The notes under the pieces: generated by a model
Databases searched by the model: none
What the model saw: the letters and a program-made list of their open reading frames with translations, nothing else
What the model was told of the DNA's origin: nothing
Part shown: one piece after another, positions 9,851-64,000 of the stretch
Layout of the letters: each line of letters begins with the position of its first letter
Position numbering within the stretch: position 1 is the first letter of the stretch
From: Actinomycetes bacterium
GTDB lineage: Bacteria; Actinomycetota; Actinomycetes; Mycobacteriales; SCTD01
Reading direction: 5' to 3'
DNA: 64,000 nucleotides
Assembly (NCBI GenBank): GCA_046565705.1
Contig: JBKHYE010000123.1
Location: forward strand, 1,075-65,074
Position numbers and translations under genes: made by a program

Positions 9851-9867
9851 GGTGATCGGTTCCGCGG

Positions 9868-11360: not shown

Positions 11361-11540
11361 CGAGGGCCTCGCGGCCCACGGCCGAGCAGCGTACCGGGTC
11401 CGGTGGCACGGCGGCAGGGCCAGCGAGGGCGGGCGCCGGGCACGAGACGCCCGTGCTCCGGTCGGGTGACGCGAGCAGACCGTGGCCCGACGGACATGGA
11501 CGGGGGGTCCTGAGGTACCTACGGTGTCCACCATGAGGGG

Positions 11541-12773: not shown

Positions 12774-13273
12774 CCCGCTGGGTCGCGCTGCTGCGCGGCG
12801 TCAACGTCGGGTCGGCGCGGCGGGTGTCCATGCCGGACCTGCGGGCCCGGCTGGCCGAGCGGGGTGCGGACGACGTCGCCACCTATGTGCAGAGCGGCAA
12901 CGTGGTGCTGTCCTCCGCCGGCGAGGCCGACAGCGTCGGTCGGCTGGTCCGCGACGCCGTCGCCGACCTCGGTGTCGGCTGCGACGTCGTCGTCCGCAGC
13001 GGCGCGGAGATGGCTGACGTCGTCGGGCGCAACCCGTGGCCGGACCGCGTCGGCGAGCCGACCAAGCTGAACGTCGGGTTCCTCGACGGCCCGACCGCAG
13101 GCGAGGCGCGCAGGGTGGCCGACGAGGAGGAGGTGCGGTTCGACGGCCGCGAGCTCTGGCTCTGGTACGGCGCCGGGCAGGGCCGCTCGAAGCTCGTGCT
13201 CGACGTCGGCCAGCGGGTGCTGACGGTGCGGAACTGGCGGACGGTGCTGGCGCTGGCGGAGATGTCGGCCTAG
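12770..13273 (+). CDS. DUF1697 family protein
   Basis: The GTG at 12770 overlaps the upstream stop (GTGA). Sequence: VTRWVALLRGVNVGSARRVSMPDLRARLAERGADDVATYVQSGNVVL...LTVRNWRTVLALAEM. The longer track ORF from 12134 overlaps the phosphatase gene out of frame. Confidence 0.75.
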   Translation: MTRWVALLRGVNVGSARRVSMPDLRARLAERGADDVATYVQSGNVVLSSAGEADSVGRLVRDAVADLGVGCDVVVRSGAEMADVVGRNPWPDRVGEPTKLNVGFLDGPTAGEARRVADEEEVRFDGRELWLWYGAGQGRSKLVLDVGQRVLTVRNWRTVLALAEMSA

Positions 13274-14972: not shown

Positions 14973-15061
14973 GGAGGGTTCGCATAGTGGACTAGTGCAG
15001 CCGCCTTGAAAGCGGCCAGGCGGTTCATCCCGCCTCGTGGGTTCGAATCCCACACCCTCCG
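14973..15061 (+). tRNA. tRNA-Ser (anticodon TGA)
   Basis: Acceptor GGAGGGT/ACCCTCC, anticodon stem GCCGC/GCGGC with loop CTTGAAA, long variable arm (GGCGG/CCGCC), T arm GTGGG-TTCGAAT-CCCAC. Confidence 0.9.
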
Positions 15062-15253
15062 CACAGGTTGCCCGCGGTCGCGGCTCGACGTGGCGACGGC
15101 GGTCTGCGCTGCTGCTCGGTGGCCGGGCTCGGCGTCCTGATGGTCACCGGCGTGTGGTTGGAGGTGACGAACAGGTGACGAGTCGGTGCGGACCCGGAGC
15201 CGATTCCCGGTCGGCTGCGTCACACCGGCAACCGACCACGCGAGGAGCACGCC

Positions 15254-23551: not shown

Positions 23552-26500
23552 TCAGGCGACCCGGGCCGGCAGCATGCGGCGTCGCATGGCGAGCAGGGCG
23601 CCGAGCATCGCGGCCAGCAGAGCCACCCACAGGGCAGCCGGCCACGTCGGCGGCGTGCCGACGGGCCCGAACTCGGCCAGGTCGGCGCCGGCCGGGGCCG
23701 CTTCCGACACGACGGGGACCGCCGGGACGACGACGGAGGCACCAGCAGCACTCGGTGCCGGCTCCCCCACGTCGACCGACGCCGGCCCGCCCCGCAGCGG
23801 AGCGGGCGGCGGCGGGACGACTGGAGGCCTCCGGTCTGCCGCGGCGGCGCCGTGGAGCACCGACAGGTCACGCTCGCCCGGCAGGAGCACCTCGGTCATG
23901 CCGTGGTGGCCGTGCTCGAGTCCGAGGACGTGGCCGATCTCGTGGACGAGCACGCTGAGCAGGTCGACCCGACCGGGGACGACGACGCCGCCCAGGTCGG
24001 TGCTCCAGCCCCAGCCGGCGGCGTCGGGGCTGATCCGGATGGTCGTGCCGTCGACCTCGCCGAGCTCGGCCCGGCCGAGCGGCGCGATCTCGAGCCCGAT
24101 GCCCGCCAGCAGCGCGGGGTCCGCGCCGGCGTGCCGCCACAGCGCCAGCGCGGTGGTCAGGACGTGCCGGGCGTCGGCGAGGCTGACCGGCTCGGCGCCA
24201 GGCCCGGACGACGCGGTGACCTGCTTGCGGTCGTCGTCGAGGATGGTGACCATGCCCTGGTTGCCGACACCGGTGGCGCCCGTGACGTCCTGGACCTCGA
24301 CGACGACCAACTCGTCCGACTCCCTGACCCGGTCGCCGATGACGACGACGCTGACGGACGCCGTGCGCGAGCCGGCGCGGATGACGACGTCGAGGTAGCT
24401 CGGCCAGGCCTGGTAGTCGACACCCGCGGTCGCGTTGGGCTGCGTCGTGCTCTGGACGATCCACAGCCGCACGACCACGTCGGTGGTGGTCGTCGCCGAC
24501 AGGGTCAGCGTGAGGGTGGCCGTGGCCGTGCCGCCGTTGCCCTCCTTGATGCTGACGCTGCTCAGCGTCACCGTCGGCAGTGCCGGCGGAGGTGAGGTCG
24601 AGGTGTCGTCGTCGACGATCGTCAGGGTCTGCGACGACGGCGCGACGACGGCGCACCCGCTGCAGCTGCCGAGGCTGACGACGACCGTCTCGTTCCCCTC
24701 GACGAGCGTGTCGTCGAGCACGCTGACGGTGAAGCTCGCCGAGGTGACGCCGTCGGCCAGGGTGAGCGCGGCCGTGGACCCGCTGAGGGTCAGCCCGGCC
24801 ACGCTGTAGTCGGTGCCCAGGGTCGCGGTGCCGCCGAAGCCGACCACGACGCTGATCGCGCCGGTGCTGTTGGACCCGCGGGTGACCGTGTAGGTGACGG
24901 TCGCGCCGCTGCCCTCGCCGGCCGACGTCGCGCTGCCGGTCAGCGACACGGTGGGCTGGGCGTCGTCGTTGGTGATGGTGACGGTGGCGCTGGACGTGCC
25001 GAGGGTGGCGTTCACCGGGCTGGACAGCGTCACGACGAAGGTTTCGTTCGGCTCGTGCAGCGAGTCGCCGACGACCGTGACCGCGATCGTCTTGCTCGTC
25101 TCACCGGCGGCGAAGCTGAGCGTGCCGCTCGTGGCCAGGTAGTCGACGCCGGCCGTGGCGGTGCCGCCGCCGGTGGCGTACTCCACGCTGACCGTGCTCC
25201 GGTACGCGGCCGAGAGCGACACGGTGACGAGGACGGTCGTGGCGTCGCTGTCGCCCTCGGTGACGCTCGCCGGCGCGACGCTGACGGTCGGCAGGTCGTC
25301 GTCGAGGATCGTGACGCGACCGGTGCCCTTAAGCAGCACGTAGCCCGTGCCGCTGGACAGGTTCACGAAGAAGTGCTCGTCGGCCTCGACGAGGCTGTCG
25401 CTGTAGATCGTGACCGAGAGCTGCTGCATGGTCACGCCGGCGGAGAACGACAGGATGCCGTTGGCGGCCGCGTAGTCGCTGCCCGCCACTGCCGTGCCGT
25501 CCGCGGTCGCCCACGGGATGAAGACCGTCTCGCCGTCGCCGGGCGCCTGGTCGAGCGTCACCGTGACGGTGACGGTCTTGGAGCCGCCGGTGCCCTCGAC
25601 GACGATGACGTCGTCGATGACCGCGTTGGGCACCAGGACCGGGTCGGGGTCGGTCGGCGTGTTGCTGCCGTCGAACTGGGAGTCGTCGGTGCGGATGCGC
25701 AGCGAGGTGAAGGTCGCGGCGGACCCCGCGGCGATGAGCCCGAACCGGCCGTCGGACAGACCCGCGTTGTACCCCCAGCTGACCATGAACAGGCCGTTGA
25801 GCGTGACGCTCGCCGAGGCGCCCTTGATCTGGGCGTCCAGGGTGTACTTCGCGCCAGCGGTGAGGGCCTGCGCCACGACGGCGTCGACGACCCAGCCGCG
25901 CCGCGGGTCGTGGTGGCCGAGCAGGACGCGCTGGCCGGCGACGTCGAGGACGGCGAACTTGAAGTCGTCGGCGCCGTAGACGTCGAAGGCGATCCCCGCC
26001 GCGCCGCTGGTCGCGACCGTCGTGGTCAGCTGCAGCCACGACGTGCTGGCCAGGAAGCGGACGTCGCCGAGCTGCGCAGTGACGACGGCCGGGGCGCCCG
26101 GCGACGGAGTGCCGGTGTAGCCGGAGCTGTCGGAGGTCCAGACCCCCGAGTCGGGGGTGGTCAGAGGGCCGGTCCCTGCCGTCAGGTCGGTGGCGCTGTC
26201 GAGGGTGACCTGCGGCGGCAGGACCTGCACCCGCACGTTGTCGAAGCGGCCGCGGGAGTTGTCCGACCCCATGCCGACCATGCCCTTGTTCAGGGCGTAG
26301 GACAGTCCGTCGATCACCCGGGCCTGGAAGGTGTAGGTGAAGGCCGTCGTGCCGTCGACGGTCAGCGTGGCGGTGGTGCCGTTCACCGAGAGCAGCAGCT
26401 GGTACCAGGTGTCGAACTTGAGGTTCTTCGGCGTCTGCACGATCACGTGCCAGCCGAGCGCGTCGTGGTACCCCATGACGATCTTGTTCGTGGACTGGTC

Positions 26501-29500
26501 GATGCCGGCGAACTTGAAGTCGGTCGGGCTGAAGTAGTCGAAGATGATGTAGGCGTTGGCCTTCCACCCGCCGGTGGGCTTCACGATGGAGGCCGAGACG
26601 GCCACCTCGTAGTAGATCGGCAGGTAGTCGTCGACGTAGAAGACGGCCGAGGCGTCCTGGCCGAGGCTGCCGGCGCTGACCTGCAGAGCGCCGCCGCTGA
26701 CGTGCCAGCTGCCGCTGTCGACGTAGAAGCCCTGGGACGTTCCGTCGTTGAAGTCGGCGCCGCGCAGGACGTCGCGCCGACCACCGGGGACGTTGCCGGG
26801 CTGCGGGTCGCGCGGGCCGCCGGTCTGCTCCTGCCAGAGACCGGAGTCCTTCTGCGTGACGATCCCCGCTTCGCCGTAGGGCTCGCCGTTGCGCGCGGCG
26901 TACTCCGCACCGGACTCCTGCACCAGGGTCTGATCGGCGCCCTGCGCCTTCGACAGCGCGTACAGGAACTCCATGAGGCCCGGCGGCACCTGCCGGCTGA
27001 CCGTCGCGATGCCGAACGGCGCGAACGGCACCAGGTAGCTGTTGAACTCGCCGACCCAGTCGATGAGCCGGTCGCCGCCGGTGTTGCCGATGAGGACGTC
27101 GAGCCCGGCGCCGCCGACGGCACGGTCCTCGTACGTGCTGTGCGTCTCCGGCTGGTCGTTCAGGTTGTCGTTCGTGGTCAGCACGTCGTCGGCGTTGAGC
27201 AGGTCGTTGCCCCAGCCGCCCCACAGGGTGTCGCGCCCGGTGCCGCCGACCAGCCAGTCGTCGCCGTAGTCGCCGAACAGGACGTCGTCGCCGTCGGACC
27301 AGAACGTCGTCCCGCCGACGGTGCCGACGTTGAGGCCCTCGTCGTGCGCGAAGTTGAGGAACCAGGGTGCACAGCCCTCGGCCTCCGCACCGGCGCCGGT
27401 CGGCGTGCAGCCCGTGTTCGCCTTGTTGGCGGCCCCGTTCGCGTTCAGCGTGATCATCCGAAGCGGGTCGTACTCGTCGTAGAGCGCGAACTGGCCGGTG
27501 TGGACGACGTCGCGGCCGAGCAGGTTGTAGCCGGCCAGCGGGCGGTGGAAGTCGTTGCGGACCAGCGTCCAGCCGGTCCAGTCGACGGCGTACGACAGCG
27601 GCAGGGCCTCGGCGCCGGACATCGCGTCGTCACCGGAGCCGCCGTGCATGAAGTCGTCGCCCCAGCCGCCGAACAGGACGTCGTCGGCGTAGAGCGGGCG
27701 ATACAGCGGGTCGTCGATGCCGCTGCCGACCTTGGGGTTGAGCGCGAACGGCGTGAGGTCGACGGTCTTGTTGAGCTTGTCGGTCGGGTAGATGACGGCG
27801 ACCTGGATCTTGCCTGGCGTGGTGATCTCGGCCTGCACGTTGGCGGAGGTGAGGCCGTTCAGCGGCTCGGTCTTGCCGTTGCGGCTGGTGAGGATCCGCC
27901 CGTCGTCGCCGAGGACGCCGTCGGCGCCGGTGCCGCCGGAGATCCAGTCGCGGCCCCAGCCGCCGATCAGGTCGTCGTCGCCGGCGTCGCCGAAGATCAC
28001 GTCGTTGCCGCCGCCGCCGTAGACGGTGTCGTCGCCGGTCTCACCGTGGAGCTCGTCGGCGCCCCAGATGCTGGCGCCGTAGGCGCCGTGGCCGTCGTAG
28101 GTCGTCGGGATGTCGGTCGGCACGGTCCAGACGCCGTTCACCTGGGTGCCGCCGAACAGGTCGGGCCGCCGGTCCGGTCCGCCGGCCACGTGGTCGAGGA
28201 GCATGACCGCGCGGACGATCAGCTTGAGACCTGTGCCGTAGCCGTCGTAGGTGAAGCGCAGGAAGGTGCCCACACCCTCGGTGGGCGTCGGGGCCACCAG
28301 GCGGAAGACGTCACCGTTGTCGCCGACGATGGTGTCGGCGTCGCGGGCGTGCGCGTCGGTGCCGGCTGTCTCCGTCGGCAGTCGCTCGTCGTTGCGGTCT
28401 GTCTTGGTGCCGGCGCCGCCGAAGATGAGGTCGTCGCCGCCCGGACGGCGCTGCGGGGTGGTGAGCGAGAACAGGCTCGAGCTGCCGCCGACGATGTCGT
28501 CCTGGCCGAGGCCGCCGAAGATGACGTCGTTACCGCCGCCGCCCTCGATGTAGTCGTCGCCGTCGGTCGTGGCCTCGAACGAGGCGACCACGCAGAGGTC
28601 GCCGGCAGCGTTGCGAGCCGCGCCGACCCGCTGATCTGCCGGGGCGTCGATCAGGTCGCAGGTGCTGCGGTCGCGGTGGTCGATCGAGCCGTCGCCCTGG
28701 ATCGTGTCGTCCCCGAGCTGGCCGAACAGGACGTCGTCGCCCGCGCCACCGGCGAGGTGGTCGTCGCCGTAGAACCACCCGGGCGTGTCGAACTCGTGGT
28801 GCAGCAGGGTGATCCGGTAGTCCGCCCAGGTCGGCTGGTTGCCGTTCCACGCCGGGTTCTCGAAGCGCTCGCTGTCGTCGGTGCCGTAGTCGATGAGCGC
28901 CTCGCCGGCGGTCGCCTGGGCGGTGCTGTAGATCTGCGAGCCGGTGAGCATCCGGAACCGCGGGTTGCGGTAGTCGCCCTCGGTCACGGTGCGGGCGAGG
29001 AAGACGTTGTCGCCGAAGACAAGGTCGCGCCCGACCTGACCGTCCACCGCGTCGTCGCCGCTGCCGCCGACGAGGACGTCGTCGCCGGCGCCGCCGCGGA
29101 TGGTGTCGTGGCCGCCGAGCCAGGTGTCGACGGTCAGCAGGACGTTGAGGACGTCCCACGTGCCGAGGTCGCCGGGTCCGCCGTTGCCCATGAGCAGGGT
29201 GACGTCGAGGTACACGACCGGGTCGGTGAGCGGGTCGCCCGTGATGCCGGTGACGCGGTACGCGCGCCCCCGGTCGCCGAACACCAGGTCGTTCCCGCTG
29301 CCGGTGTTGATCTCGTCGCCGCCCTGGCCGCCGAACACGATGAGCGGCAGCGTCGACGAGCCGGCCTGCACGGTGTCGTCGTCGCTCGTGCCGACCTTCG
29401 GCGGCGCGAAGACCTCGGGGGTCTCGCGAACGATCTCGACGACGAAGTACGGGTCCTCGGCGTCGTAGGTCCGGCGCTTGGTCCCGGCGTAGAAGCTGAT

Positions 29501-35500: not shown

Positions 35501-38500
35501 GCCGATGCCGTCCTCGGGGCTGCTGATGCGGATGGTGTCGTCGCCGGTGCCCGTGCGGACGGTCAGGTGCCCCGCCACGCTGCGGATGATGACGGTGTCG
35601 TTCCCGTTGTTCGTCTCGACGACCGTGGGTCGCTGGGTACCGGCGTGCGTGCTGTCGATCCGCAGCGTGTCGCCGCCGGCGCCGAGCCCGATGAACATCG
35701 AGCTGAAGCCCTCGTAGGTGATGCCGACGGCCATCCCGAGCCCGGTCAGGGTGTTCGAGGTCAGCACGCCGCTGTTGGCAGCGGTGTCGCCGGTGTCGTC
35801 GACCCGGATCACGTCGAACGCTGCCTGCGCGGAGGAGCCCTCGTTGCCGCCCCAGACCTTCAGGGCGCCGGTGACGGCGTTGACGTTGCCGCCGGTGTTC
35901 GCCGAGCCGGTGGACCACAGCGTGTCCGTCCGGCTCTTCGCCATGTTGCTGCCGACGCCGAGCTCGTCGTCACCGTCGCCGAGGTAGATCCGGTGCTCGA
36001 CGTGGATGGCCCGGACGGCGACGCGGTCGCTGCCGGACAGCGTGCGGACCTCGATGAGCTCGACGCCGCTGTAGTCCACAGCCGTGATCGCGCTCGCCAG
36101 CGTGTCGCTCGTGCCGAGCGGCATCTGCCGGATCCGGCCCCGGGTGCTGTCTGTCGTGTCGACGACCAGGTCCTCGCGCAGTGAGGTTCCCCAGACCTGC
36201 AGGCTGTCGGTGCCGGCGCTGTCGGTGACGTGGACGCGCATCCCGGCGGCACCGGTCAGCTCGACCCGCACCGTGTCGTTGCCGTCGAGCGTGGTCAGCG
36301 TGGCGTCACCCGTCCACGGCGTGGCTGCCCGCTTGGTGCCGGCGACCGAGACCGAGCCGTCCGCGTCGCCGACGAGGAACGTGTTCGCGCGGCTGTCGCC
36401 GGTCAGCTGGGCGTTCTCGAAGATGCCCTTGGTGTCCTCGGCGATGCCGGTGGCGAAGTCGACGGCCCCCGACGTCGTCCCGACGACGAACAGGGTTCCG
36501 TAGAGGCCGAAGCTGGTGAAGGTCGGTGACGTCGAGGTGTAGCCGGCCAGGTCCTCGACGAGGGTGTCGCTGCCCCCGGCGTCGAAGAACCGGTCGAGAC
36601 CGCCGCCGCCGGTGAAGGTGTCGTTGCCGTCGGTGTAGTCCGTCTGCCCCTCGGCCGGCTGCAGGACGCCGTCGTGCCCGCCGTCGAGCACGTCGTCGAA
36701 CGGCGTGCCGACCAGGGTGTCGTTGCCCAGCCCGCCGCGCAGGACCACCGCGACCCGGTTCTCGGTCAGGCCGGCTGCGGTGAGCTGGTCGTCGCCGCCG
36801 TTGCCGCGGATCTCGAGCGTGTCACCCTCGGCGCGCACGCTGGTGCCGATCCAGATGTTGTAGGCCTGACCGCTGCCGGTCCGGCGGACCTTGATGTCGC
36901 TCCCGGTCCGCTCGGCGAGGCTGTCCTGGCTGTCGATCGTCCCGGTGAACGTGTCGGCACCGGTGGAGCCGTTGACGAGGATGCGGTCGGCCGCGCCGTC
37001 GTCGCTCGTCACGATGTTCGGCACCTGTCGGGTGATGCCGTCCTCGACCACCGTGCGGGTACCTGTGACGGTCACCCTGCGTCCGAGGTCGATGGTCAGG
37101 TCTGTCACGCTCGACGAGCTGAGGTCGTTGACGACGAACAGGTCGCCACCGGCGCGGCCGTCGAAGAAGAACCGCTCGACGTTGGTGACGGCACGGCTGG
37201 TCGTCGTGTTGCTCAGCGCGGGGACCTTGAGCTGCAGAGTGACGGTGCTGCCGCTTCCGCTGATCGTCAGCTCGTCCGGGAACGAGGACATGGTCACGAA
37301 CAGCCGGTCGGTGCCGTTGCCGGTCCCGTCGCCGCTCTCGGCCACGCCGTCGCCGTTGACCTCCGGGATCGAGCCGGCCTCCGCGCTCACCCGGATGATG
37401 TCGTTGCCGGCGCCGCCCCAGTACTTCGCCCCGCGGCCTTCCAGCTCGTCGTCGCCGTCGCCGCCGTACAGCTCGTCGGTCGCCGACGACCCGACGAGCC
37501 AGTCGTTGCCGCCCTGGCCGTAGAGGTTCGCCGTGCCGGTGCCGTCGTGGAAGATCACGTCGTCGCCGTAGCCGCCCTTCGCGACGACGTTGCCCGGGCC
37601 CTCGATGCTGATGATGTCCTCGTCGCTGCCGGACCCGGTGGTCGGGCCGCCGATGAGGCAGTTGGAGACGAAGTCGGCGCAGGACGCGCTGCCGGTCCAG
37701 GTACCGGCGTAGTTGACGGCGTCGTCGCCGGTGCCCATGTCCAGGTAGACCGGGATCTTGACCGAGCTCATCACGGTGACGCTGTCGTCGCCGCCGGTGA
37801 AGAAGCCGCGGACCGAGGTCACGTTGGTGTAGGTGTTGCTCCGGCCGAACGAGGTGACGCGGATCGTGCCCTTGGTCGCGTCGCCGTCGAGCTGCTCGAT
37901 GACGACGCTCTCGTCGGTGATGTCGGTCGCGATGTTGCGCACGCCGGCCCGGCTGCCGACGTTGAGCTCCAGCGCCCCGCCGGCCGACGTCCACGACCGC
38001 TGGTGCGCCTGTGTGCTGCCGCCGGTCTGTCCGGCGAGGTAGGTCGGCGGCGGCAGCTGCAGGTAGCCGAGGCGGAAGGTCTTCGACTTCGTCACCGTGA
38101 CGAACAGGATCTTGATGCGGACCTTGACGGTGAACTCGATCGCGACCTTGCCGCTGTCGCCGGCGCTCGCGGTGTCGAGCTGGACGGAGAAGTCCAGCCC
38201 GATGCCGACCAGCGTGATGCCGGCGACCTTCACCGACAGGCTCGCACCGACCGCGAGGCGGAACACGTAGGTGTTGTTCGTCGTGACGGTGCACGTCGTC
38301 GGCGGGGTCGGCAGCGGGTTGCCGTCCGCGCACCGGGCACCCGGCGCGTAGTTGACCGACGTCATCCGGAACCGGAACTCGCCGAAGATGCCGAACCCGC
38401 CTCCGCCGAGCGACAGCTGGCCCCGCACGTCGATGTCGAAGTTGCCGCGCGAGTCCAGGAAGATGGAGCCGGACAGCCGCGCGAGCCCGAAGAAGTCCGC

Positions 38501-50500: not shown

Positions 50501-53500
50501 CGTGCTCTGCGTGACGTCGAAGGTGGCCACGGTGAGCGCGACGTCTGCGACGCTGAACGCCACGTTGGTGCCGCGCACCTTGAGGTAGGGGCCCGCCTCC
50601 GCGATCGCCAGCGTGACCGCACCGACCTTGACGCCGGCGTCGTAGCCGCCCGTCGTCGTGCGGGAGCGGCGCATCGGCAGTGCCGCGCCGCCCTCTGAGG
50701 TGACCAGCTCGAGCACGCCGTCGCCTCCGAGGTCGCCGAGCGCGAAGCCACCGGCGAGGGTGGTGCCCGCGGCCAGCAGCTCGGTGCTCGTCGACGCGAA
50801 GCCCTGCCAGACGCCCGTGTCGTCGTGCGGCCCGCGGTTGAGCCGGGCGAACAGTCCGCCACCGCTCGTGGTGCGCACCAGGTCGACCCGCCTGTCGCCG
50901 TTGACGTCGACGAGCAGCACCCGGGTCGTGTCGCTCGTCCCCGGCTGCCCGCTCGGGGTGGCGAAGGTGGTGAACCCACCGGTGCCGTCGCCCTTGTACA
51001 GCGCGTCCGTGCCGGAGCCGCCCCGGCCCACGAACAGGTCGAGCTTCGCGTCGCCGTCGACGTCGGCGAGGGCCAGCACCGCGGTGGCCGGCACGGTGAC
51101 GCCGGTGAGCGCGGCCCCCGCGCCGAAGCCGAGCCAGCTGCTGTCGGTGCTGCTGTTGCCCAGGCCCTGGTACATCGTCACCGTGGTGCCGCCGGCGGTG
51201 CGGACGAGCAGGTCGGCGGCGACGACCGGGGCGGTGTCCTTGACGTTGCCGATGACGATCGACGCGGCGTTGCTGCCGAGCGCCACCCCGACGGTGGCCT
51301 TGGCGAAGGCCCCGGCACCGGTGTTGCGCCAGACCTCCGTCGCGCCGCTCGACCCGACCACGACGTCGGGCTTGCCGTCGCCGTCCAGGTCGCCGACGGC
51401 AAGGGCGGTGACGGCGGCGGGGGCGGTGAGCACGACGAACGGCGGGACGCCGTCGAACGGGTCGCCCACGCCGTCGTTCACGTAGAGCAGCACGGTGCTG
51501 GCCGAGGCGACGAGCAGGTCGGGCCGACCGTCACCGGTGACGTCCGCCAGCGCGAGAGCGGTGGTGCTGGTCGGTGCGGTGCCGAACGTCACGGTCTCCG
51601 AGACCGTCGCGCCGCGGCTGTTGAACAGCACCGAGAACGTGCCGGACAGCGTCACGCCGGGGATCGTCACGGCCACGGTGCCCGTCACGGTGCCGGCCAG
51701 CCCGGCACCTGCCCCGCTGCCCGACTTCAGCGACAGCAGGCCGCTGCCCTCGGACAGCGTCACGTACGCGGTGGTGCCGTCACCGAAGGACGCCGTGACG
51801 TTGCGCAGCAGGATGCGCACGACGGTGTCGACGCCGACGGCGGCCCTCTCCACCACGACGTCGCCGGTCAGCCGCTGGCCGCCGAGCGTCAGCACGATGC
51901 CGATGCCCTCGACCCGCAGGTAGGGCCCGCCGGGGACGTCCAGGGTGATGGTGCTGCCGCCGGCGGTCACCGACTGCCGCACCGCCGCGACGCCGGTGTT
52001 GACCGCGACGGTGAACGTGCCGGTGAACGCCGCCTGGCCGGCGCCGGGCGGCACCAGCAGCGAGACGTTGCCGGTGATGCGCCCCGCCACGGTGCCGTTG
52101 TTGACGACGAGCAGGCCGGTGCCCCCGGTGAGGCTCGCCCCGGCGCCCGCAGCGCCGATCGTGAGCGACACCTGGTCGGCGAAGATGCGCAGGATGCGCG
52201 GCGCTTCGGTGCCGGCGGGCGCGCTGGGGCTGACCTCGCCCCGCACCTGCTCGAAGCCGAAGATCCCCGACAGCGTCTGGCCGCCGATGGTCAGGGTGAG
52301 CGGCGACGCCGTCTCCGCCCGCACCGACCCCGGCTCGAGGACGCCGTACGGGCTGATGGTGACCCGGTCGGGCGTGGTGTTGATGCGCAGCGTGACCGAC
52401 AGGCTCGAGCCGCTGAACGGGTTGCCGGGCAGGGCGAGGACGAGCGACCCGCTCACGACACCGGCCACGCCGGTCGGGCGGATCTCGAAACTGCCGCTGC
52501 CGATCCGCACGACGACCGGGTGCACGCCGCCGCTCGGCTCGCCGAGCCGGAGGTCGACCGGGCTGCCGCCGGTGAGGGCGTCGGTGCCCAGCCGGACGGT
52601 GATGACGCTGCCGACCCTGGTGACGGCGATCGAGCCCGACAGCTCCTGGCCGCCGAAGCCGAGGGTGACGTTCTGGGCCACGATGCTCTGGGTGTTGTTC
52701 TCGACCGAGGTGCCGTGCAGCGACTGCGTCGAGCCGGTGTTGTTGTAGCGGAACGACAGGCTCGTGCCGGACAGCGTCAGGCCGGGGATGCCGATGACCG
52801 CGATCGAGCCGGTCAGGACGAAGGCGTACTGGCCGGACGCGGGGTTCATGCCCTCCCCGGCGACGTTCGTGAGCAGGAAGCCGCGCGCGGACGGGTTGAC
52901 CTGCGACGGCGTGCTGCTGTCGCCGTCGAGGTAGTAGGGACCCTCGCCGAGGAACAGCGTGACGTTCGAGATCGTGAACGCCGTCGCCTGCCAGGTGATG
53001 CTGCCGTAGAACTCGAACGGGCCGAGCTGCAGGGCGAGCTTGGCGCTGATCTCGACGAACGGCTCGACCGACGGCGTGTCCTGCCGGACCTCCGTCGCGG
53101 AGAAGACGATCGGCAGCGCGACGCCGTTGACGAGGACGAGCTCGTCCACCGCGCCGGCGGTGCCGTTGACGCGCGCCTTGATGTCGGCGCCGACGGAGAA
53201 CCCGCCACCGCTGCCGGCGTCGGCCTGGCCCGAGATGACGCCGGCCGCGCCGTCGGCCGTGAGCACGAACGCGCCCTGACCGTTCTCGATCTTGACCGCG
53301 TCGGTGCCCAGCGTGACGGTCACGCCGGAGAACCCGATGAGGGTGATCTCCACGGGCGTGTTGTGCAGCGCGCGGACCGGGCCGGACGCCGTCCCCGCGA
53401 TGACGAGGTCGAGGTCGCCGTCGCCGTCGGCGTTGACGAGCGCGACGAGCGCCGCGGCGCTCCCGGCGACGGTGGTGACGCCGACCTTCAGCGTCACCGG

Positions 53501-56500
53501 CGACGGCGCCCGCAGGCCGAGCCAGGTGCCCGCGCCGTCGACGCCCTTGTTGCGCATCAGCCGCGGGCCGTCGCTCGCCGTCGTGAGGACCGCGTCGAGC
53601 CGGCCGTCGCCGTCGACGTCGCCGAGCAGCGCCCCGGTCGCGCCGGTCCCGGTGCCGAGGTCGGTGGCCGCGATCTGCCAGGTGGCGTTGCTCACCGTGG
53701 CGCCCTCGAGCGCGGCGGCAGCGGCCGTGCCGAAGGCACCGCGGACCAGGCCGGTGAACGACGTGCCGGTCTTGCCGGTGTAGAACACCTTCTCGCTGCC
53801 GAGCAGCAGCACGCCGCCGTCGGCGAAGCCGGCGGTGCTCGCGACGGTGACCGTCGTGGCGGTGGCGTTCAGGCCACCGGTGCCGGTGACCGTCGTGGAG
53901 ACCGCGGCCGCCGGGAGCACGTTGCGGCCACGCCACAGCTGCGACGTGCCGGAGCGGGTGACCAGGACGTCGGTGAAGCCGTTGCCGTCGAGGTCACCGG
54001 CGACGGCGCCGGTCGCCGCCCCCGAGGACAGGAGGGTCGGCGGGGCGAAGAGCAGGCTGGTGACGACGGCGCCGGTCGCGACGCTGGCCGCGGCGCTGGT
54101 CGAGTCCAGAGCCCGGGTCAGGCCGGTGAACGAGGTGCCGGTCGTGCCCGCGTAGCGCAGCCGCTCGCTGCCGTTGACGATCAGCCAGCCCGACGGCGCG
54201 AACCCGGCGGTGCTCGTCACCGCGAGAGCCGTCGAGGCGCTCGTGAACGCACTGGTGGCCACCGCCGTCGTGCCGCCGCCGACGCCGGTCCAGACCGAGA
54301 CACCGGCGCTGCCGGCCACGACCAGGTCGCGCAGGCCGTCGTTGTCGAGGTCGGCCAGCAGCAGCGAGGTGACGCCGGTGGTGGTCAGCGTGCGGGCGTG
54401 CGCGGTGGTGCTCATCCCGAGCCACTGGCCGACCACGTTCACCGGCGCCTGGTGGCTCAGCGGCGCGTCACCACGAGCCGAGACGAGCAGCAGGTCGCCG
54501 TCCTTGCCGCTGTACGTGATCGGCTCGGTGCCGTCGACGACGACCGTGCCGGACGCGGCCAGCGGGGTGGCGCTGTCGACGGCGAGGTAGCCGACGGCGA
54601 CGGTCGCCCCGGCGGCCCGGTCACCCACGCTCGTGCCGTACTGCCCGCGCACCAGGCCGCCGAGAACGCCGGGAGCCACCGAGGTGTACCGGACGAACTC
54701 GGCGCCGATCTTGGCGATGCCGCTCGCGGCGAAGCCGGCGGTGCTGGTGACCTCGGCGAAGCCGACCGTGACGGTCGCGCCGCTGAGGTGGCCGGCGGCG
54801 GCCGTGCCGTTGACGCCGCGCACCAGCCCGTTCAGCGTCGTGCCGCTGAGGGAGGCGTACCGGATGAACTCGGTGCCGATCCGGATCAGGCCCGTGGCCC
54901 CCAGCCCGGTCGCGCTGCTCAGCGTCAGCGACGTGCCTCCCGAGCCGAGCGCGGCGGTGAGCGTCGGCAACGTGGCGGGAGCGGAGGTTCCCGAGGCGAG
55001 CTGCTGCGCGAGCGTGCTGCTCGCCGGCACGACGTCGGCGGCCAGGTCGGCTGCGAGCGTCGCCGTCGCGTTGCCGCCGTTGAGGAAGACCTTCGTCGTC
55101 GTCGAGCCGCTCGCGCCGATGACCAGGTCGGCGAAGCCGTCGCCGTTCACGTCACCGACCGTGACAGCCGAGGCGTCCGGCGTCGAGAACGCCGACCCGG
55201 ACAGGCCGTAGCCGAGCCACTGGGTGACCGTCGCGCCGGCGGCGTGCGCCGTCGCGCCGGCGAGCCGGCTCACGCCGGTGAGGGTGCTGCCGGTCTTGCC
55301 GGTGTAGGCGAGGTACTCGCCGCCGATGCTGACGACGCCGGCCGAGGCGAAGGCGCTCGCGTCGGCCAGGGTGAGCGTCGTCGCGGTGGCGCTGATGCCG
55401 GCGGCCAGCGTGGAGGTGCGGTTGCCGAGGTTGCGGTAGACGGCCGTCTGGCCGGTGCTGCCGTTCTTGGCCACGACGAGGTCGGGCCGGCCGTCACCGT
55501 CGAGGTCGGCGAGGGCGACGGCGGTCGTCGTCGTGCCGGTGCCGCCGACAAGCGACACCGAGGCCGTGTTGGCGAAGGTCCCCGCGCCGGTGCCGCGGAA
55601 GACCGAGACGCCGCTGCTGGTGCCGACGAGGAGGTCGACCAGGCCGTCGCCGTCGACGTCGGCGACGCGCAGCACCGTGGGGGTGACCGTCGGACCGACC
55701 GGGTTGGCGTCACCGAAGCCGGGCTTGGTCGAGCGCTCGACGGCGAAGCTGCCGGTGAAGCCGGTGCCGGCGACGCTCAGCGTGGCGCCGGTGACCTCGA
55801 ACCGCGCGTACGGCCCGGCCTTGAGCAGCGTCGCGCCGAGCTGCACCGGCAGCGACGTCGTGTTGATGGCGAGGACCGTGGTGCCGCCGGAAAGGGAGGC
55901 GTTCGAGCCGAAGGTGAAGCTGGGCGTGCCGGTGACGAGCGCCGCGACCCCGTTCGGGGTGATGCGGATGGCGCCGCTCCCGGTGAAGGAGGCGAACGTC
56001 CCGAGCGTGATGCTCAGGCCGGTCACCGTGACGTTCACCTGGACGCTCGGCGCGGTCCCGGTGCGCTCGAAGGTGAACGACGCTGCCGACACACGCACAC
56101 CGGCGACCGTCAGGTAGGTGCTGCCGGCGGTGAGCCGGATGGTGCCGGCCGCGAGGCCGCCCTGGAGGCCGCCGGTCGTGTTGAGGTCGAGCGTGACCGT
56201 GGCGCCGAGCTGGACCCCCGGGACCTCCACGACCAGGTCGGCGTTCGTGATGCTGCCGTACACGCCGCCGGCGACGGTGGTCGCTCCGGTGCGACGGGCC
56301 CCGATGACGGTGAAGCTGCCGCTGATGTTCGTCGCGCGCACGATCGGCGCCGTCGGCGTCCCGAGCGAGATCTCGCCACCGGTGATGGCCAGCGTCACCG
56401 AGCCCGGTGTCGTGCCGGTGCCGTCGACCTTGGTGAAGGTGAACGTGCCGGAGATCGTCTGGCCCGCCACCGTCAGGCTGACGCTGGAACCCGTCACCCG

Positions 56501-59500
56501 CAGGTAGCTGCCGCTCGCGACGGTGAGGGTCGTCGTGACGCCGCCGACGACGAAGTCCTGGGTGAAGCCGCCGGCACCGGTGTTGAGCTCGAGCGCGAAG
56601 GTGCCGGCCAGGGCCACGCCGGGCACGCCGGTCAGCGCGACGGTGCCAGTGGCGCGGCCGGCGACGAAGCCGCCGGCGAGCTGGAACAGGGCCTCGCCGT
56701 TGGTCAGGCTGACGAGGTCGCGGGTGCCGTCGCCGAGGGCGGCGCTGACGTTGCTCGCGGCGATGCGGACGACCATGACGTCGTCGTTCACGTTGCCGTT
56801 GGCCGGGTTGGGGCCGGCGACGCCGTCGGCACCCAGGCCGGTCACGACCCGCTCGAAGGAGACGTCGCCGCGCAGCGCCTGGCCGGCGACCACGAGGGTG
56901 CCGCCGATGACCGCGACGCGGACGAACGGCCCGGCGGGCACGTTCAGCGACAGCGTGGTGCCGCCGACCGCCAGGCTCGTGGCGACTGCCGCCGCCGTGG
57001 TGTTGATCTGCAGCCGGACGTCACCGGCGAGCGACAGCGCCGGGCCGGCGGTCACGCTGAGCGTGGCGGCGAGCGAGCCGGCGACGCCCTCCGGCGTCAC
57101 GACGAACAGGCCGGTGACGCCGGTGGCCCGCACGGTGCCGAGCAGGTCGAGCGAGCCGCCGCTGACGGCGAAGCGCACGACCTTGGTGCCGGCGGCGGTC
57201 GTGGCCTGCTCGACCGTGAACGAGCCGGCCAGCGTCTGGCCGAGCACCGTCAGGGTGACCGGCGCGAGGGCGGTGCCGCCGGTGACCCGCAGGTACGGCC
57301 CGGCCGGCAGCCCGAGCGCCGCCACGCCGGTGGTGTTGACCGCGAGCCCGAAGGTCCCGCCCAGCGCGAACCCGGGCACCGACACCACCAGCGTGGCCTC
57401 GACCGAGCCCGCCAGGCCGGCGGCGGTGAGGAGCAGCTGCGCGGGCGTGGAGGTCTGGGTGACTTGGACCAGCGGCGCGGTGTCGGTGCCGCCCAGGCGC
57501 AGCCGCAGGTTGCGGGCGGTGACGGCGAGCACGACGGCACCGGCGGCGTCGACGGTGCGGGTGAGCTCGACGTCGCCCGACAGGCTCTGGCCGACGAGCG
57601 ACAGCGTGATGCCGGTGCCGACCACCCGCAGGTACGGGCCGCCCGGCAGCGCCAGCGACACCGGCGTCGGCGAGCCGCCGACGAGGAAGGACGTGCTGAC
57701 CGGCGTCGTCGTGGTGTTGACCTGCACCGACAGCGTGCCGCTGATCGCCACCGACGGGACCGACAGCGAGACGGTGCCGCTGACCGTGCCGGCCAGCCCA
57801 CTCGGGCGGACGACGAACAGCGCCGTGCCGCCGGTGACCGACAGCATGCCGCCGATCGACAGCGAGGCGTTGGTGACGGCCAGGCGCACGACCTGCGTGT
57901 CGTCGCCGCCACCGGGCACGCCGTCGGCACCGAGGTCGGTGGCGCGCTCGAACGCGACGTTGCCGGTGATGGTCTGGCCGAGGACGGTGAGGGTCAGGCC
58001 GGTGCCCTCGAACCGCAGGTACGGGCCGCCGGGCAGCGCGACGGCGAGCGTCGCGGCGCCGACGGCGACGCTCGTGCTGACGGCGGCCGAGCCGGTGTTG
58101 ACGGCGACCGACAGGGCGCCGGACAGCGCGACGCCGCCGGGCAGGTTGACGGCGATCGTGCCCGACAGGCGGCCGGCGACCGCGGTGCCGGTGGACACGA
58201 GGACGCCGGAGCCGCCGGTGAGCCGGACGCCCGCCGCCGCCGTGCCGAACAGGACCTCGACCCCGGTGAGGCCGACCGTCGTGACGGTCGAGCCGTCGGA
58301 CGCCGTCGACCGCTCGAGGGCGACGTCGGCGGTCAGCGACGCACCGGCGAGCGCGAGCGTGACGCCGCTGCCGCTGACCCGCAGGTACGGGCCCGCCGGC
58401 AGGTCGAGCACCACGGTGCTGCCGGCGACGTCGATGCTGCGGCTGACCGCGGGCGTGCCGGAGTTGATCGAGACCGCGAAGGCGCCGGTGAAGACCACGC
58501 CCGGCACCGTCACGGTGATGCCGCCGCTCACGCGGCCGGCGAGCCCGGCTGCGGTGGAGACGAACGCGGCCGTGCCGTTGGTGACCGTGACGGCGCCGCC
58601 GGCGAGGGTGGCGCTGACGCCGGTGGCGCCGACGACGACGTCACCAGCAGGCGCCGTGTCGAACGAGAAGCTGCCGGTGAGCGACTGCCCGGCCAGCTGC
58701 AGGGTCGCGCCGCTGACCGAGAAGGACCTGACGACCGCGGAGGTCGGGAACAGCAGCTCGATCCCCGGCCCGGTGCTGCCCGGCACCGAGAGCACCAGCG
58801 GGACGGCCGCGGTGGCGCCGTGCACCGGCGCGCCGGTGGTGTTCACCCTGACGCTGACCGTGCCGCCCGAGATCACGACACCGGCGATGCCGATGAGGCT
58901 GACGCTGCCGGTGGCGACGAGCGCGTGGCCGGCGCCGGCCTGCACGACACCGATCCGGGCGCCGGACAGCAGCACGCCGCTGGCGAGCGGGTTGATCTCG
59001 CCGCTCTCGAGCCGGGCGGGGCCGCGCCCGAGGAAGATCGTCAGTCCCTCGCCGGCGAACCGGCCGCTGCTGTCGAAGGAGACGTCGCCCTCGATCGTGA
59101 GGAACTCACCGATGGTGAGCCTGGCGCCGAGCAGCGCCACCTCGACGAGCGGCGTCGAGACCTGAGCGAACTTGACGACCAGCGTGCGCCCGCCGACCTG
59201 GATCGCCTCGTCGATGTCCTCGCCGGTCACGGTGATGACCCGCACCACGACCCGCGCGCCGGCCGACACCGGACCGGCCGCGATGCTGGCGGTGCCGTTG
59301 AGGTAGCCGGCGATGCCGGTGCTGCGGAGCAGGAAGGCGCCCTCGCCGCCGGTCAGCTGCACGCTGTCGCCGCCGACCGTCGCCGACACGTTCGACGCGC
59401 CCACGACCGCGACCTCGTTGCCGGCGCCGTCGAGCCGGCGCTCGAACGCGAAGTCCCCGGACAGGGACGGGCCGGTGGCGGTCAGGCTGAGGGCGGCGCC

Positions 59501-62500
59501 GACCACCTCGACGCGCAGGTACGGCCCGGCCGGGACGGACAGGACGGTCGAGGTCGTGCCGACCGTGAAGGTCTCGGCGACCGCCGCGGCCCCCGTGTTG
59601 ACCGCGAGCCGGACGGTGCCACCGGTCAGCGTCACGCCGCCCGCGGCGACGGTGACGCCGGTGACCAGCCGCCCGGCCACCCCTGCCGACGTGAGCAGCA
59701 GCTGACCGCTGGTCGGGCCGACCGTCACCGGACCGAAGCTCAGCAGGTTCTGCGGGACGCTCGACACCAGCGCCGGCGTCACGGCCGCTCGGACGACGGT
59801 CGCGCCCGCGGCCGTCGTCGTCTGCTCGAACGAGATGCCGGTGCGCAGCGTCTGGCCCGCCACGACGACCTGCACGTCGGCGCTGCCGACGGCGACGCGC
59901 TGCTGGCCCGGACGCGTGTCGAACGACGCGGTGAGGGTGGAGGCGATGCTGATGCCCGGCACGGCGAAGCTGACCGGGCCGCTGAACGAGCCGTGGGCAC
60001 CGGTCGCCGTCAGCGTCAGGGTGAGCGACGCGGGGCCGACGGCCAGCAGCCCGCCGCCGAGCGACAGCGACGCGTTCGCCACCGTGAGCACGGTGTCGGC
60101 GCCGCTGCGGACGACGGTGACGTCGCCCGACACGGACTGGCCGAGGACCGAGACCGACAGCCCGGTGCCGACGAACCTCACGTAGGTCTGCCCGCTGCCC
60201 GAGGCCGGCAGCACCAGCGGCACCGAGACGCCGCCGACGGTGAAGATCTCGTTGACCGCCTCGTCGAGGCTGCTGACCTGCAGGGTGAGGGCTCCGGCGA
60301 CCCAGACGCCCGGCACGTTCACCGCGACCGTGCCGCGGATCTCGCCGGCGACGCCGGCCGCCTTGAGGAGCACGACACCGGTGCCGCCGGAGAGCGACAC
60401 CACCGGCGTGCCGCCGGCGCCGAGGGCGAAGGTGAGGTTCGCGACCGCCACCCGGACGACAGGCGTACCGCCCTGGACAGCGGTGCGCTCGATCGCGAGG
60501 TCGCCGACCAGCGTCGGCCCAGCGGTGCCGATCCGGAACCCGGCGCCGAGCGCCTCGACCCGCAGGTACGGGCCCGCCGGCAGGTCGTCGACCGCTGCGG
60601 CACCGGTGTTGAGCGCGACCGAGATCGTGCCCAGCTCGAGCGCCGACAGGGTCGCGCCGGTGTCGACCGTGCCGGAGACGCGCCCGGACACCCCGGCGGC
60701 CGTGACGGTGAACGCGCCGTTCACGCCCGTGACGGACAGGATCGTGTCGCCGCTCTCGGCGGTGGCGCCGGTGCGCAGGGCGAACGATCCGCCGGTGACA
60801 GCGACCCGGGTGGTCGTTCCGCCGCCGGCGGTGACGCGCTCGACCGACAGCGTCCCCGCCGACAGCAGGATGCCGGCGAGCCGGATGCCGATCGGGCCGC
60901 CGGCCAGCTTCAGGTACGGGCCTGCCGGCAGGCTCACCGAGCCGGCCTGCTGCGCGATCGCCGTGGTGTTGAACGCGACGGTCAGGGCGCCGGTCTCGAT
61001 CGCCACGCCGGGCAGGTTCAGTGACAGCGAGCCGGTGATGCTGCCGAAGGCGCCGGTCGTGCCGACGGTGAAGGTCGACGTCGCGCCGGTCTGGCCGATC
61101 GCCGGGCTGGCGAAGGTGCCGATGACCGTGGCGCCGTCGCGCAGCTCGAGCCGGACGTTCGTCGTGCTGACGGTGAAGCCGCCGGCCGTCCGGGCGAAGC
61201 CGAGGTCCGCGGTGAACGACGTGCCGCCGACCGCGATCGTCAGGCCGGTCCCGCGCACCTGCACGAAGGGCACGGTGGCGCTGGGCGCCCGCTCGTCCGG
61301 CGTGGACGCCGTGCCGTCGGTGAAGCGCACGATGACGTCGCCGTCGCCGTCCGGGAAGGCGATCGTCTGGTTCACCGCGGTGGTGAGCTCGTTGACCCGG
61401 ACGACGATCAGGCCGGTGACGGACAGACCTGGCAGCCCGACGAGCTCGACCGTCCCACGGACGTCGAGGGCGTACTTGCCACCGGACTTCCAGAAGCCGA
61501 CCGTCGCGCCGGTGAGGAGCAGCCCGCGCGCCAGCGGGTTGCGCGTGCCGTCGGACAGCAGGGCCGGCCCGTCGCCGACGAAGACGGTGAGGTTGCGGCC
61601 GGCGAACCCGCCCTCGCTGCCGGTGAAGTCACCGGTGATCGTGACGTAGTCACCGATCGTGAGCGTGCCGCCGAGGATCGACAGCGAGAAGACGATCGCG
61701 GCGTCGGTGAACACGACGCGCAGGTCCTGCCCGCCGACCGACACCGTCTGGTCGACGGCCGAGCCCGAGTTGTTGACGCGCACGACGACGTTGCCGCTGA
61801 TCGACAGCGGGCCGGTGTTCGCCGACACGGTTCCGGAGACGTAGCCCGCGATGCCGCCGGGGACGGCGGGCGTCGCCGCCGGGTCGGCCGGCACCACGAC
61901 GAGTGCGCCGGTGACGTTGCTGATGGTGACGGAGTCGGCGGCGACGGTGATGCGGCCGTTGCGGATGGCGAGCACCGTGCTGGCGCCGGACCGGCTGAAC
62001 AGGAAGGTGCCGGAGATCGTCCCGAGTGCCGGTGAGCCGAGCGTGATGGCGTTGGCGGCGTCGACGGTGACCTCGACGCGCGTGCTGCTCGCGGCGAGGG
62101 TGCGGCCGCCGACGACGGCGGCGGTGGTGCGGGTGTTGACGTCCACCCGGGCCGCGATGCCCGTGGCGCTCAGCACGCCCGGCACCTTCAGCGACGCCGT
62201 GGCCGTGAGGGTGCCGGCAGTGCCGCTGGCCGCGATCTCCAGCACGCCCGTGGAGACGCGCACCGACGCGATGCCGTTCGGCAGCACCAGCGAGACGCCG
62301 GACAGCGACACGGTGACGACGGCGCCCGCCGCCGTGGTCGTGCGCTGCAGCCGGATGTCACCGGTGAGCTCCAGCCCGGCGATCGTCAGCGTGACGTTGA
62401 TGCCACCGACCCGCACGGTCGACGCGGCCAGCGCGACGCCGCTGACCGTCTGCGGGGTCGGGGTGGTGTTGATCTCGACGCGGACGCCGCTGGACAGCGA

Positions 62501-64000: not shown

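Follow-up and report, generated by a model that had tools for sequence, protein, structure and literature searches.

We analysed a 64,000-nucleotide stretch of DNA (the window) from an Actinomycetes bacterium (assembly GCA_046565705.1, contig JBKHYE010000123.1, forward-strand positions 1,075 to 65,074), which has a G+C content of 72% and is dominated by one giant gene for a putative surface protein. The open reading frame (ORF) lies on the minus strand at window positions 23555–64000, holds 13,482 stop-free codons, ends with a TGA at 23552–23554 and runs off the right edge of the window. Amino acids (aa) are numbered from that edge, so that aa i corresponds to window position 64000−3(i−1). The encoded part amounts to 1,361 kDa and is acidic, with an isoelectric point (pI) of 4.6. 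The earliest start codon in the window, a GTG at 63889, falls inside the first copy of a repeated module (module 1, aa 8–121), so that translation must begin beyond the window edge.

At this G+C content a long open frame is by itself weak evidence of a gene, because the strand opposite the giant gene carries a spurious plus-strand frame of 3,441 codons (50699–61021). Other antisense frames are also numerous, with high G+C at third codon positions (GC3), and are traps for gene callers at such composition. In each of 14 consecutive 1,000-codon tiles of the giant ORF, GC3 was 0.95–0.98, compared with 0.48–0.59 at second positions (GC2), and a GC3 this high throughout indicates that the frame is coding. 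Several parts of the ORF have protein homologues. Furthermore, the syntenic metagenomic locus L005, which was assembled independently and is ridden with frameshifts, is collinear with aa 10340–13392, and homologous protein fragments from many other assemblies (P0073–P0114) are collinear with aa ~5350–7340. Internal DNA repeats do not exceed 64–73% identity and exact matches extend over 31 nt at most, which makes repeat collapse or expansion in assembly very unlikely. An earlier interpretation made from the letters alone (the sequence-only reading) had proposed a single ORF of at least 13,482 codons, open at the window edge, and had named an artefact of the repeat array as the point to check; the DNA repeats speak against such an artefact, and these data confirm that the 40-kb gene is real, coding and uninterrupted as far as the window shows.

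The ORF was scanned as 14 tiles against Pfam and NCBIfam, with Pfam also applied at E ≤ 5. About 22% of the residues belong to families that Pfam can name and ~35% to a module of ~112 aa; the rest is unassigned. The sequence-only reading had described a mosaic of β-rich extracellular-type modules with most of its mass unnamed, which agrees with this composition, and two FG-GAP propellers, RTX runs, Calx-beta domains and a metzincin motif that it listed were all recovered with the scores given below. It had also excluded a nonribosomal peptide synthetase or polyketide synthase, and indeed no condensation, adenylation, peptidyl carrier protein, ketosynthase, acyltransferase or acyl carrier protein domain was found by Pfam or NCBIfam over all 14 tiles. 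The Ig-like arrays that it had suggested were not confirmed, as Ig-like domains had no hidden Markov model (HMM) support even at E ≤ 5. By internal comparison, weakly self-similar units of ~100 aa occur at aa 5850–11300, with small domains at aa ~5850–6080 and units of several types at aa ~6850–11500; those at aa 5850–11300 may be β-sandwiches, though without HMM support. The 22 cysteines form 11 local pairs, 3–24 residues apart, within aa 6291–13116, and both aa 1–6290 and the module arrays are free of cysteine. Such close pairing is as expected for an oxidised extracytoplasmic protein and, together with the extracellular-type domains, the acidic pI and the lack of internal transmembrane (TM) segments, suggests that the protein is extracytoplasmic.

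The ~112-aa module is the largest component that could be delimited. With our own HMM we counted 39 clear copies, which occupy aa 8–5797, and 3 weak ones, a correction of the ~37 copies estimated earlier; FG-GAP regions split the array twice. Array A (55652–63979, minus strand like every feature of the ORF; aa 8–2783) contains 23 head-to-tail copies, array B (51488–53284; aa 3573–4171) has five modules of which the last is partial, and array C (46610–50773; aa 4410–5797) has 11, the first being partial. Three degenerate copies found with the same HMM lie at 38078–39517 (aa 8162–8641), distant from the main array, and this segment is the sole basic stretch (pI 9.6) of an otherwise strongly acidic protein. 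The module consensus reads ..GvAG.lsGtvsl.vPGV.lsGTv.V.vNTt..aV...LPAGPYLRV.gtg.tLtvaGqtLsGdf.fER.., and pairwise identity among the copies has a mean of 29% and a maximum of 51% at the protein level, the low mean suggesting that the array is old and diverged.

A model of three consecutive modules (aa 1808–2173) was computed with AlphaFold2 (AF2) from 25 aligned, non-overlapping triplets of this protein and its homologues. It is all-β, with a predicted local distance difference test score (pLDDT) of 93.8 and a predicted TM-score (pTM) of 0.84. Each predicted module consists of eight strands (three long, two short, three long) of 12–15 residues connected by tight Gly-rich turns, and every strand shows a strict alternation of hydrophobic and polar residues. 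The high pTM over three modules suggests a fixed inter-module geometry, i.e. a rod and not beads on a string, so that a rigid rod is a confident prediction for the module array. With its eight strands a module would rise by ~2–4 nm, depending on the packing of the sheet, so that the array would measure very roughly 75–170 nm and the whole molecule several hundred nanometres.

The module has no match in Pfam (E ≤ 0.01 or E ≤ 5), in NCBIfam, or in the PDB by sequence or profile. Foldseek with the module model also gave no PDB match at E ≤ 1e-3, the best TM-scores being ≤0.27 and all to outer-membrane barrels, while in BFVD the matches were weak (an unnamed protein at TMq 0.44 and a putative phage tail fibre at 0.36). 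Outer-membrane barrels, LptD, usher and ApoB100, retrieved with the module or with the core described below, were rejected as homologues, since TM-scores of ≤0.27 reflect a generic similarity of long hairpins; the predicted structures of the module triplet and the core have no PDB neighbour, and the modules that the sequence-only reading could not name stay unnameable. The module is nevertheless widespread. A profile search of 1.84 billion representative proteins returned 1,824 clusters at E ≤ 1e-3, including 638 at E ≤ 1e-30, with members of up to ~7,700 aa. Word-index matches came from Ilumatobacteraceae, Acidimicrobiales, Propionicimonas, Solirubrobacteraceae, Catenuloplanes, Rokubacteria, Planctomycetota, Mucilaginibacter and Akkermansiaceae. 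All 72 of the 72 are built of the same module (393 copies in total), are annotated as 'hypothetical', 'large repetitive protein' or 'beta strand repeat-containing protein', and show no Pfam domain besides FG-GAP.

Beyond the module arrays lies a conserved, non-repetitive core (43451–45703; aa ~6100–6850), delimited by identity to homologues and the best-conserved part of the protein, far above the repeats. A query of aa 6050–6900 was 56–72% identical to fragments from Ornithinibacter, Microbacteriaceae, Actinoplanes and other Actinomycetota, and identity was still 41–53% to Planctomycetota, Proteobacteria, Verrucomicrobia and Chloroflexota; sequences in this lower range came from Sterolibacteriaceae, Pirellula and other Planctomycetota, Akkermansiaceae, a gammaproteobacterium, Gaiellaceae and Limnocylindria. 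These homologues are all without a Pfam domain. The core itself, like the module, has no match in Pfam (E ≤ 0.01 or E ≤ 5), in NCBIfam or, by single sequence or profile, in the PDB. The AF2 model of the core is of moderate quality (pLDDT 75 and pTM 0.50, with residues ~80–790 mostly above 75) and shows long β-strands with one helical hairpin; Foldseek revealed no real neighbour, with LptD, pilus ushers, SlpA and ApoB100 at TM-scores of ≤0.23.

The order of module array followed by core recurs in the longer family members P0115, P0120, P0189 and P0202, and the giant ORF shows this defining order with its 39 modules followed by the core. We regard the core as the functional element that defines the family. 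On the evidence of these searches the giant protein is not unique, as the module and the core mark a family of ~1,800 clusters of unannotated homologues with the same module-then-core order in Actinomycetota, Planctomycetota, Verrucomicrobiota, Proteobacteria, Chloroflexota and Bacteroidota, every one of them labelled hypothetical. A literature search found no description of this family. In four loci from long-contig metagenome assemblies (L001, L005, L006 and L007), homologous giant genes are chopped by frameshifts into many short overlapping calls; because of such fragmentation, the database proteins of the family are mostly fragments and its sizes and lengths are underestimated.

Both FG-GAP regions reach Pfam scores of 75–105 bits and are consistent with propellers. 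Propeller 1 (53285–55651; aa ~2784–3572), identified by FG-GAP_3, FG-GAP and a count of motifs, has seven blades with DxDxDG Ca2+ loops and six hairpin inserts of ~45 aa ('IGxExxxY...L.RGxxGT') between blades. Propeller 2 (50651–51583; aa ~4140–4450), identified by FG-GAP_3 at 104.6 bits and by motifs, has at least five Ca2+-loop blades. The insert motif of the first, G.i.IG.E.i.Y.G..G..L.G..RG..GT.A..H..GA.V, occurs in six copies at ~53700–55340 (minus strand, aa ~2886–3435), one of which gives a weak match to Pfam Rcc01698_C (E = 0.0024, below cut-off). TcdB_toxin_midN also reaches 21–25 bits within the FG-GAP blades, a weak match.

The C-terminal half contains several further families of extracellular type. 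HemolysinCabind scores up to 75.9 bits in three regions, and 35 matches to the RTX nonapeptide motif were counted. The first nonapeptide block (37361–37603; aa ~8800–8880) matches both HemolysinCabind and the hemolysin and CyaA RTX structures in the PDB, and the RTX-rich repeat region (27011–29413; aa ~11530–12330) combines HemolysinCabind scores of 75.9 and 52.6 bits with nonapeptide motifs and internal repeats. The last RTX motif is at aa ~12305, and LamG-like domains, Calx-beta domains, a metzincin, a linker and a TM helix come after it. The LamG assignment made earlier stands in part: the region at 25721–26755 (aa ~12416–12760) is duplicated internally, aa 12474–12565 matching aa 12666–12754, and would form two LamG/ConA-like domains, but Laminin_G_3 (E = 1.9e-5) scores 25.3 bits, just under the Pfam cut-off of 27.6. 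Four Calx-beta domains (24191–25663; aa ~12780–13270) follow with a period of ~115 aa, a Pfam score of 137.8 bits and a match to the Ca2+-binding domain (CBD) structures of NCX1 at E = 2e-19.

The metzincin motif belongs to a short domain, termed mini-metzincin here (23846–24190; aa ~13271–13385), whose motif region reads ...DAAGWGWS...DLLSVLVHEIGHVLGLEHGHHGM. The zinc motif HEIGHVLGLEH is located at aa 13353–13363 (window 23912–23944), with a conserved Met five residues past its third His. HExxHxxGxxH, the G.M after it and the upstream DAAGWGWS are conserved in 8 of 8 aligned sequences. With a cut-off of 24, Peptidase_M10 (PF00413) reaches 25.3 bits and aligns only at profile positions 103–126 of 159, and NF038122 is weak, with 24 bits against a cut-off of 80. 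The domain therefore shares with the metzincins (M10 matrixin/serralysin-type; NF038122) the complete HExxHxxGxxH and the subsequent Met, but at ~110 aa it is shorter than a full M10 catalytic domain (~160 aa or more), and only its motif region aligns, with scores around or below the cut-offs.

The protein ends with a Pro-rich acidic linker (23651–23845; aa 13386–13450; 23% Pro), a candidate wall-spanning spacer, followed by the TM helix WPAALWVALLAAMLGALLAM and the tail RRRMLPARVA (23555–23650; helix at aa 13453–13472). In a hydropathy scan this helix is the single strongly hydrophobic 19-mer besides a β-strand at aa 1693. As the Pro-rich spacer precedes the hydrophobic helix and RRR follows it, it is likely to be a stop-transfer anchor of type I whose tail is cytoplasmic. 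The earlier term 'tail-anchored' is thus apt for the single C-terminal helix but not for the route, which would be stop-transfer after Sec export and not the post-translational tail-anchor pathway. The closest C-terminal homologue, P0245 (63% identical), ends alike with Calx-beta, a C-terminal, membrane-proximal mini-metzincin, linker, TM helix and RRR. A motif search near the C-terminus found no LPXTG or LAXTG sortase motif, the nearest string, LAEFG, lacking the invariant Thr, and P0245 also has none; sortase anchoring was rejected on this basis.

The missing N-terminus can be approached through homologues. When aa 1–333 were compared with genome contigs, relatives among the matches listed were 31–41% identical, and the homologous giant genes among them were from Microbacterium sp. 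F51-2R (a complete chromosome, NZ_CP197470.1, around 2.72–2.74 Mb), Microbacterium sp. MF43 and a Gaiellaceae metagenome-assembled genome. The Microbacterium ORFs (loci L002 and L003), of at least 5,320 and 5,399 codons, extend to the ends of their loci, have a GC3 of 0.93–0.94 and open with a typical signal peptide, ...RRTVLGRARAAAVSIVVTSALVVTLAAVPAQA, ahead of EE. Downstream of it both have a Q/A-rich stretch, then a mini-metzincin like that of the giant ORF, a Pro/Ala linker and a further ~1,000 aa of different sequence. Their module array begins at aa ~1450–1560, and aa 9–312 of the window protein align with its first modules. Judging from these homologues, which are 39–41% identical, the part outside the window may comprise ~1,500 aa and bring the protein to about 15,000 aa, and it may include a second mini-metzincin.

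The gene next to the giant ORF (22261–23532, minus strand, 423 aa; Pfam Beta_helix, TIGR03805 weak) encodes a lipoprotein with a signal peptide, the lipobox LAVTG followed by C, and a right-handed β-helix domain. It is co-oriented with the giant gene, its GTG start being 19 nt past the giant ORF stop and preceded by AGGA. In L005 the fragmented orthologous giant gene likewise precedes a Beta_helix lipoprotein gene, 61% identical, and then Beta_propel, SpoIIE and Abhydrolase genes, a set of neighbours that the window has too. No such partner was found downstream of P0246, a more distant C-terminal homologue. Its presence in L005 and absence after P0246 led us to reject the lipoprotein as a family-wide partner; in the loci compared it appears conserved only among close relatives.

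The 23.5 kb downstream of the giant gene contain, besides the lipoprotein gene, a Kdo-kinase/DUF4032 gene and genes for a major facilitator superfamily transporter, Beta_propel, SpoIIE, a hydrolase and others. Judged by its LGFP, SpoIIE phosphatase and Kdo-kinase/DUF4032 neighbours and by the best matches, the giant gene belongs to an actinomycetotal host, probably one of the Micrococcales. The Beta_propel (PF09826) gene lies near the giant gene in both loci (window 15179–17512, plus strand; L005 13094–13789), and in the window it is flanked by tRNA-Ser (14973–15062). A second large surface-protein gene (1–3924, minus strand) runs off the left edge with at least 1,308 open codons; it has four LGFP repeats, a CBM96-like region and, at the far end, an RHS repeat, and probably encodes a wall-associated protein of the RHS/polymorphic-toxin type. 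A phage-type integrase gene (5831–7129, minus strand) adjoins tRNA-Arg(ACG) (7136–7209, minus strand), and the DNA to the left of these has 68–70% G+C, compared with 73–78% further right. From these features, window 1–7209 looks like an island integrated at tRNA-Arg that bears the RHS/LGFP gene.

To place the giant protein, we compared it with known large surface proteins. Embp of Staphylococcus epidermidis and Ebh of S. aureus are Gram-positive proteins of ~10,000 aa (~1 MDa), rod-like and hundreds of nanometres long, with about 40–60 tandem repeats of ~110–170 aa in the rod, and they have the same layout of an export signal, a tandem-repeat rod and a putative C-terminal TM anchor instead of LPXTG (PMC7587433). 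However, their rods consist of α-helical FIVAR/GA bundles and DUF1542, whereas the modules here are all-β in the AF2 models, and no Pfam match to FIVAR, GA or DUF1542 was found in the giant ORF. Nor do Embp and Ebh have the Ca2+-binding domains, the propellers, the conserved core or the metzincin of the giant protein. The likeness is one of layout and function only, with no relation in sequence or fold.

The RTX/Bap adhesins of the type I secretion system (T1SS), such as LapA, SiiE, MpIBP, FrhA and BapP, are likewise large, acidic, Ca2+-dependent fibres with RTX repeats, Calx-beta or cadherin-like sandwiches, a repetitive extender and propeller-type ligand domains (PMC12153261). They are exported C-terminus first by an adjacent T1SS through a C-terminal RTX signal and have an N-terminal outer-membrane retention module (PMC12153261). 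In contrast, the giant ORF has internal RTX repeats, a C-terminal TM anchor and a monoderm context, and its homologues have N-terminal Sec signals. No T1SS gene (ABC transporter, membrane-fusion protein or TolC) was found in the 23.5 kb downstream, the upstream side lying outside the window, and no Big-type or Cadherin domain was matched even at E ≤ 5 in the part of the ORF within the window, the N-terminus being beyond it. T1SS secretion was rejected on the C-terminal architecture, the gene context and the signal peptides of the homologues.

Bacterial integrin-α-like proteins with FG-GAP/VCBS and Calx-beta share with the giant protein the seven-bladed FG-GAP propellers, the DxDxDG Ca2+ loops and Calx-beta, but FG-GAP and Calx-beta make up only ~12% of it, and the module array and core are unrelated. 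The giant proteins of Omnitrophota and Actinobacteriota (West-Roberts et al., bioRxiv 10.1101/2023.11.21.568195) and Giant1–5 of Apilactobacillus kunkeei are also megadalton-sized, largely unannotated and predicted to be extracellular, with domains that become visible only through structure prediction of tiles. The Omnitrophota giants (Archaeovorin/Dockerin-type) have many TM helices, SecA_DEAD, dockerin, cohesin and carbohydrate-active domains, none of which occurs here, where there is a single TM helix. Giant1–5 are α-helical rods with an N-terminal β-solenoid, an SH3b-like wall-binding end and no TM helix, features that are absent here. As for the shells of Tc toxins, RHS proteins and teneurins, no RHS_repeat match was found in the ORF and Foldseek retrieved no Tc or RHS structure. 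The sequence-only reading had not recognised the domain order as a described system, and by Pfam, NCBIfam and comparison of features no characterised adhesin family matches the architecture, so that the giant protein appears to belong to none.

Taken together, we favour the interpretation, with a probability of about 0.62, that the gene encodes a surface fibre of a high-GC Gram-positive actinobacterium, exported by Sec, anchored in the membrane at its C-terminus and stiffened by Ca2+. The chain would be exported by Sec through an N-terminal signal peptide, as in the Microbacterium homologues, until the C-terminal helix halts transfer and anchors it with the N-terminus outside and the C-terminus inside, RRR being cytoplasmic, while the 65-aa Pro-rich spacer would cross the wall. 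Outside the cell, Ca2+ would fold and stiffen the RTX β-rolls, the four Calx-beta domains and the FG-GAP loops, in keeping with the known behaviour of these families, and the close cysteine pairs would make disulfides. The proximal two-fifths, with Calx-beta, LamG-like, RTX and unassigned ~100-aa β domains, or the C-terminal ~7,000 aa, may serve as an extender, and the distal ~5,800 aa would project outward as the rigid rod of 39 modules predicted by AF2, displaying the two in-line FG-GAP propellers as putative ligand-binding heads. The ~750-aa core between rod and extender would carry the family-defining function, and the membrane-proximal mini-metzincin, whose zinc motif is intact, probably acts in processing or shedding of the fibre or of a partner. 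As the most likely net function, which we hold less firmly than the fibre itself, we propose Ca2+-dependent attachment or interaction between cells or with a matrix at a distance of hundreds of nanometres from the cell; this adhesive role is deduced only from the domain families.

Several observations weigh against this interpretation. About 78% of the residues, and the core, have no functional annotation, so that the protein may have an activity other than adhesion. The N-terminus of this protein, and with it any signal peptide, lies outside the window. The Pfam M10 match covers the zinc motif only (24 of 159 profile positions). Furthermore, more distant C-terminal homologues stop past the metzincin with a basic tail only and no TM helix, indicating that the mode of anchoring varies within the family. 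Finally, the mini-metzincin is N-terminal in the Microbacterium homologues (L002, ~3600–3950; L003) and in several family representatives, which argues against a role in cutting a fixed site beside the anchor; from its varied positions, it behaves as a mobile accessory domain.

Among the alternatives, a shed or structural scaffold of envelope and matrix is possible though unlikely. Here anchoring would be transient, and the metzincin or the lipoprotein would release Ca2+-cross-linked fibres into a sheath, biofilm matrix or coat. The conserved, intact metzincin motif does adjoin the linker and anchor, several homologues that end past the metzincin without the TM helix are probably released, Ca2+-binding domains abound in this very acidic protein, and Bap/RTX adhesins are often released in part (PMC12153261). 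However, the TM anchor is kept in the closest relative, P0245, the metzincin of other members is N-terminal and distant from any anchor, and there is no sign of self-association domains.

It is improbable that the protein is a device for contact-dependent antagonism or predation, in which the rod would reach a neighbouring cell and the core or metzincin would attack its envelope, as in polymorphic-toxin, Tc/RHS and Omnitrophota giants. The weak structural matches of the core are all large membrane β-barrels or belts (LptD, ushers, SlpA and ApoB100), but TM-scores of ≤0.23 denote generic β-meanders only. Likewise, TcdB_toxin_midN matches the FG-GAP regions weakly and an RHS/LGFP gene is present in the same window, but that gene is ~20 kb away on an apparently separate integrase/tRNA island, and the giant ORF has no RHS/YD repeats, C-terminal toxin cassette or immunity-like small ORF, its C-terminus being the anchor. 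Giant genes of Omnitrophota have been linked to attack on the cell wall of prey (bioRxiv 10.1101/2023.11.21.568195), but the SecA and multi-TM features of that type are absent.

Even less probable is an amphipathic β-meander groove or belt that binds lipids or hydrophobic polymers or moves them across the envelope, in the manner of LptD, TamB or ApoB. It would account for the hydrophobic/polar alternation in all module strands and for LptD and ApoB100 among the Foldseek matches; however, the same alternation is expected of any two-layer β structure, no RBG, AsmA, TamB or Lpt family was found at meaningful scores in Pfam, NCBIfam or Foldseek, a conduit of 5,800 aa is far beyond any envelope width, and decoration with FG-GAP, LamG and Calx-beta is typical of binding proteins. 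An artefact or dead gene (a chance GC-rich frame, a chimeric or expanded repeat assembly, or genes fused by sequencing errors) is very improbable, for although spurious ORFs in the window reach 3,441 codons and other assemblies often break up the homologous giant genes, codon-position GC is uniform across the 40 kb, the repeats average 29% protein identity with at most 73% identity and 31-nt exact matches in DNA, independent assemblies show the parts in the same order and no signal peptide or TM segment lies inside the frame.

Giant TM-anchored surface proteins such as Embp and Ebh are known from Gram-positive bacteria, and proteins of >10,000 aa have already been reported in Actinobacteriota (bioRxiv 10.1101/2023.11.21.568195), so that this size is no longer surprising by itself. 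What is new is that a repeat with a very confidently predicted fold but no counterpart in Pfam, NCBIfam or the PDB makes up about one third of a protein of 1.36 MDa, and that the widespread module, the conserved core and the mobile mini-metzincin are building blocks of a family that is unannotated everywhere. Since related genes are mostly shattered by frameshifts or contig ends, a 40-kb copy that is uninterrupted and still has its C-terminal anchor and operon partner offers a useful reference for defining the family, for structural work on the module and core, and for genetics in a culturable relative (Microbacterium). More speculatively, and with considerable doubt, the protein could be the most complete intact example of a cross-phylum superfamily of megadalton fibres defined by the module, core and mini-metzincin, three elements that have neither a name nor a solved structure. 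The core would then be no mere spacer but the active element at the end of a long reach, e.g. an envelope- or membrane-active β-barrel or belt or an oligomerisation hub, making these fibres a new class of contact-dependent surface organelle and not ordinary adhesins. Should the core prove active in its own right, this would no longer be just one more adhesin family.

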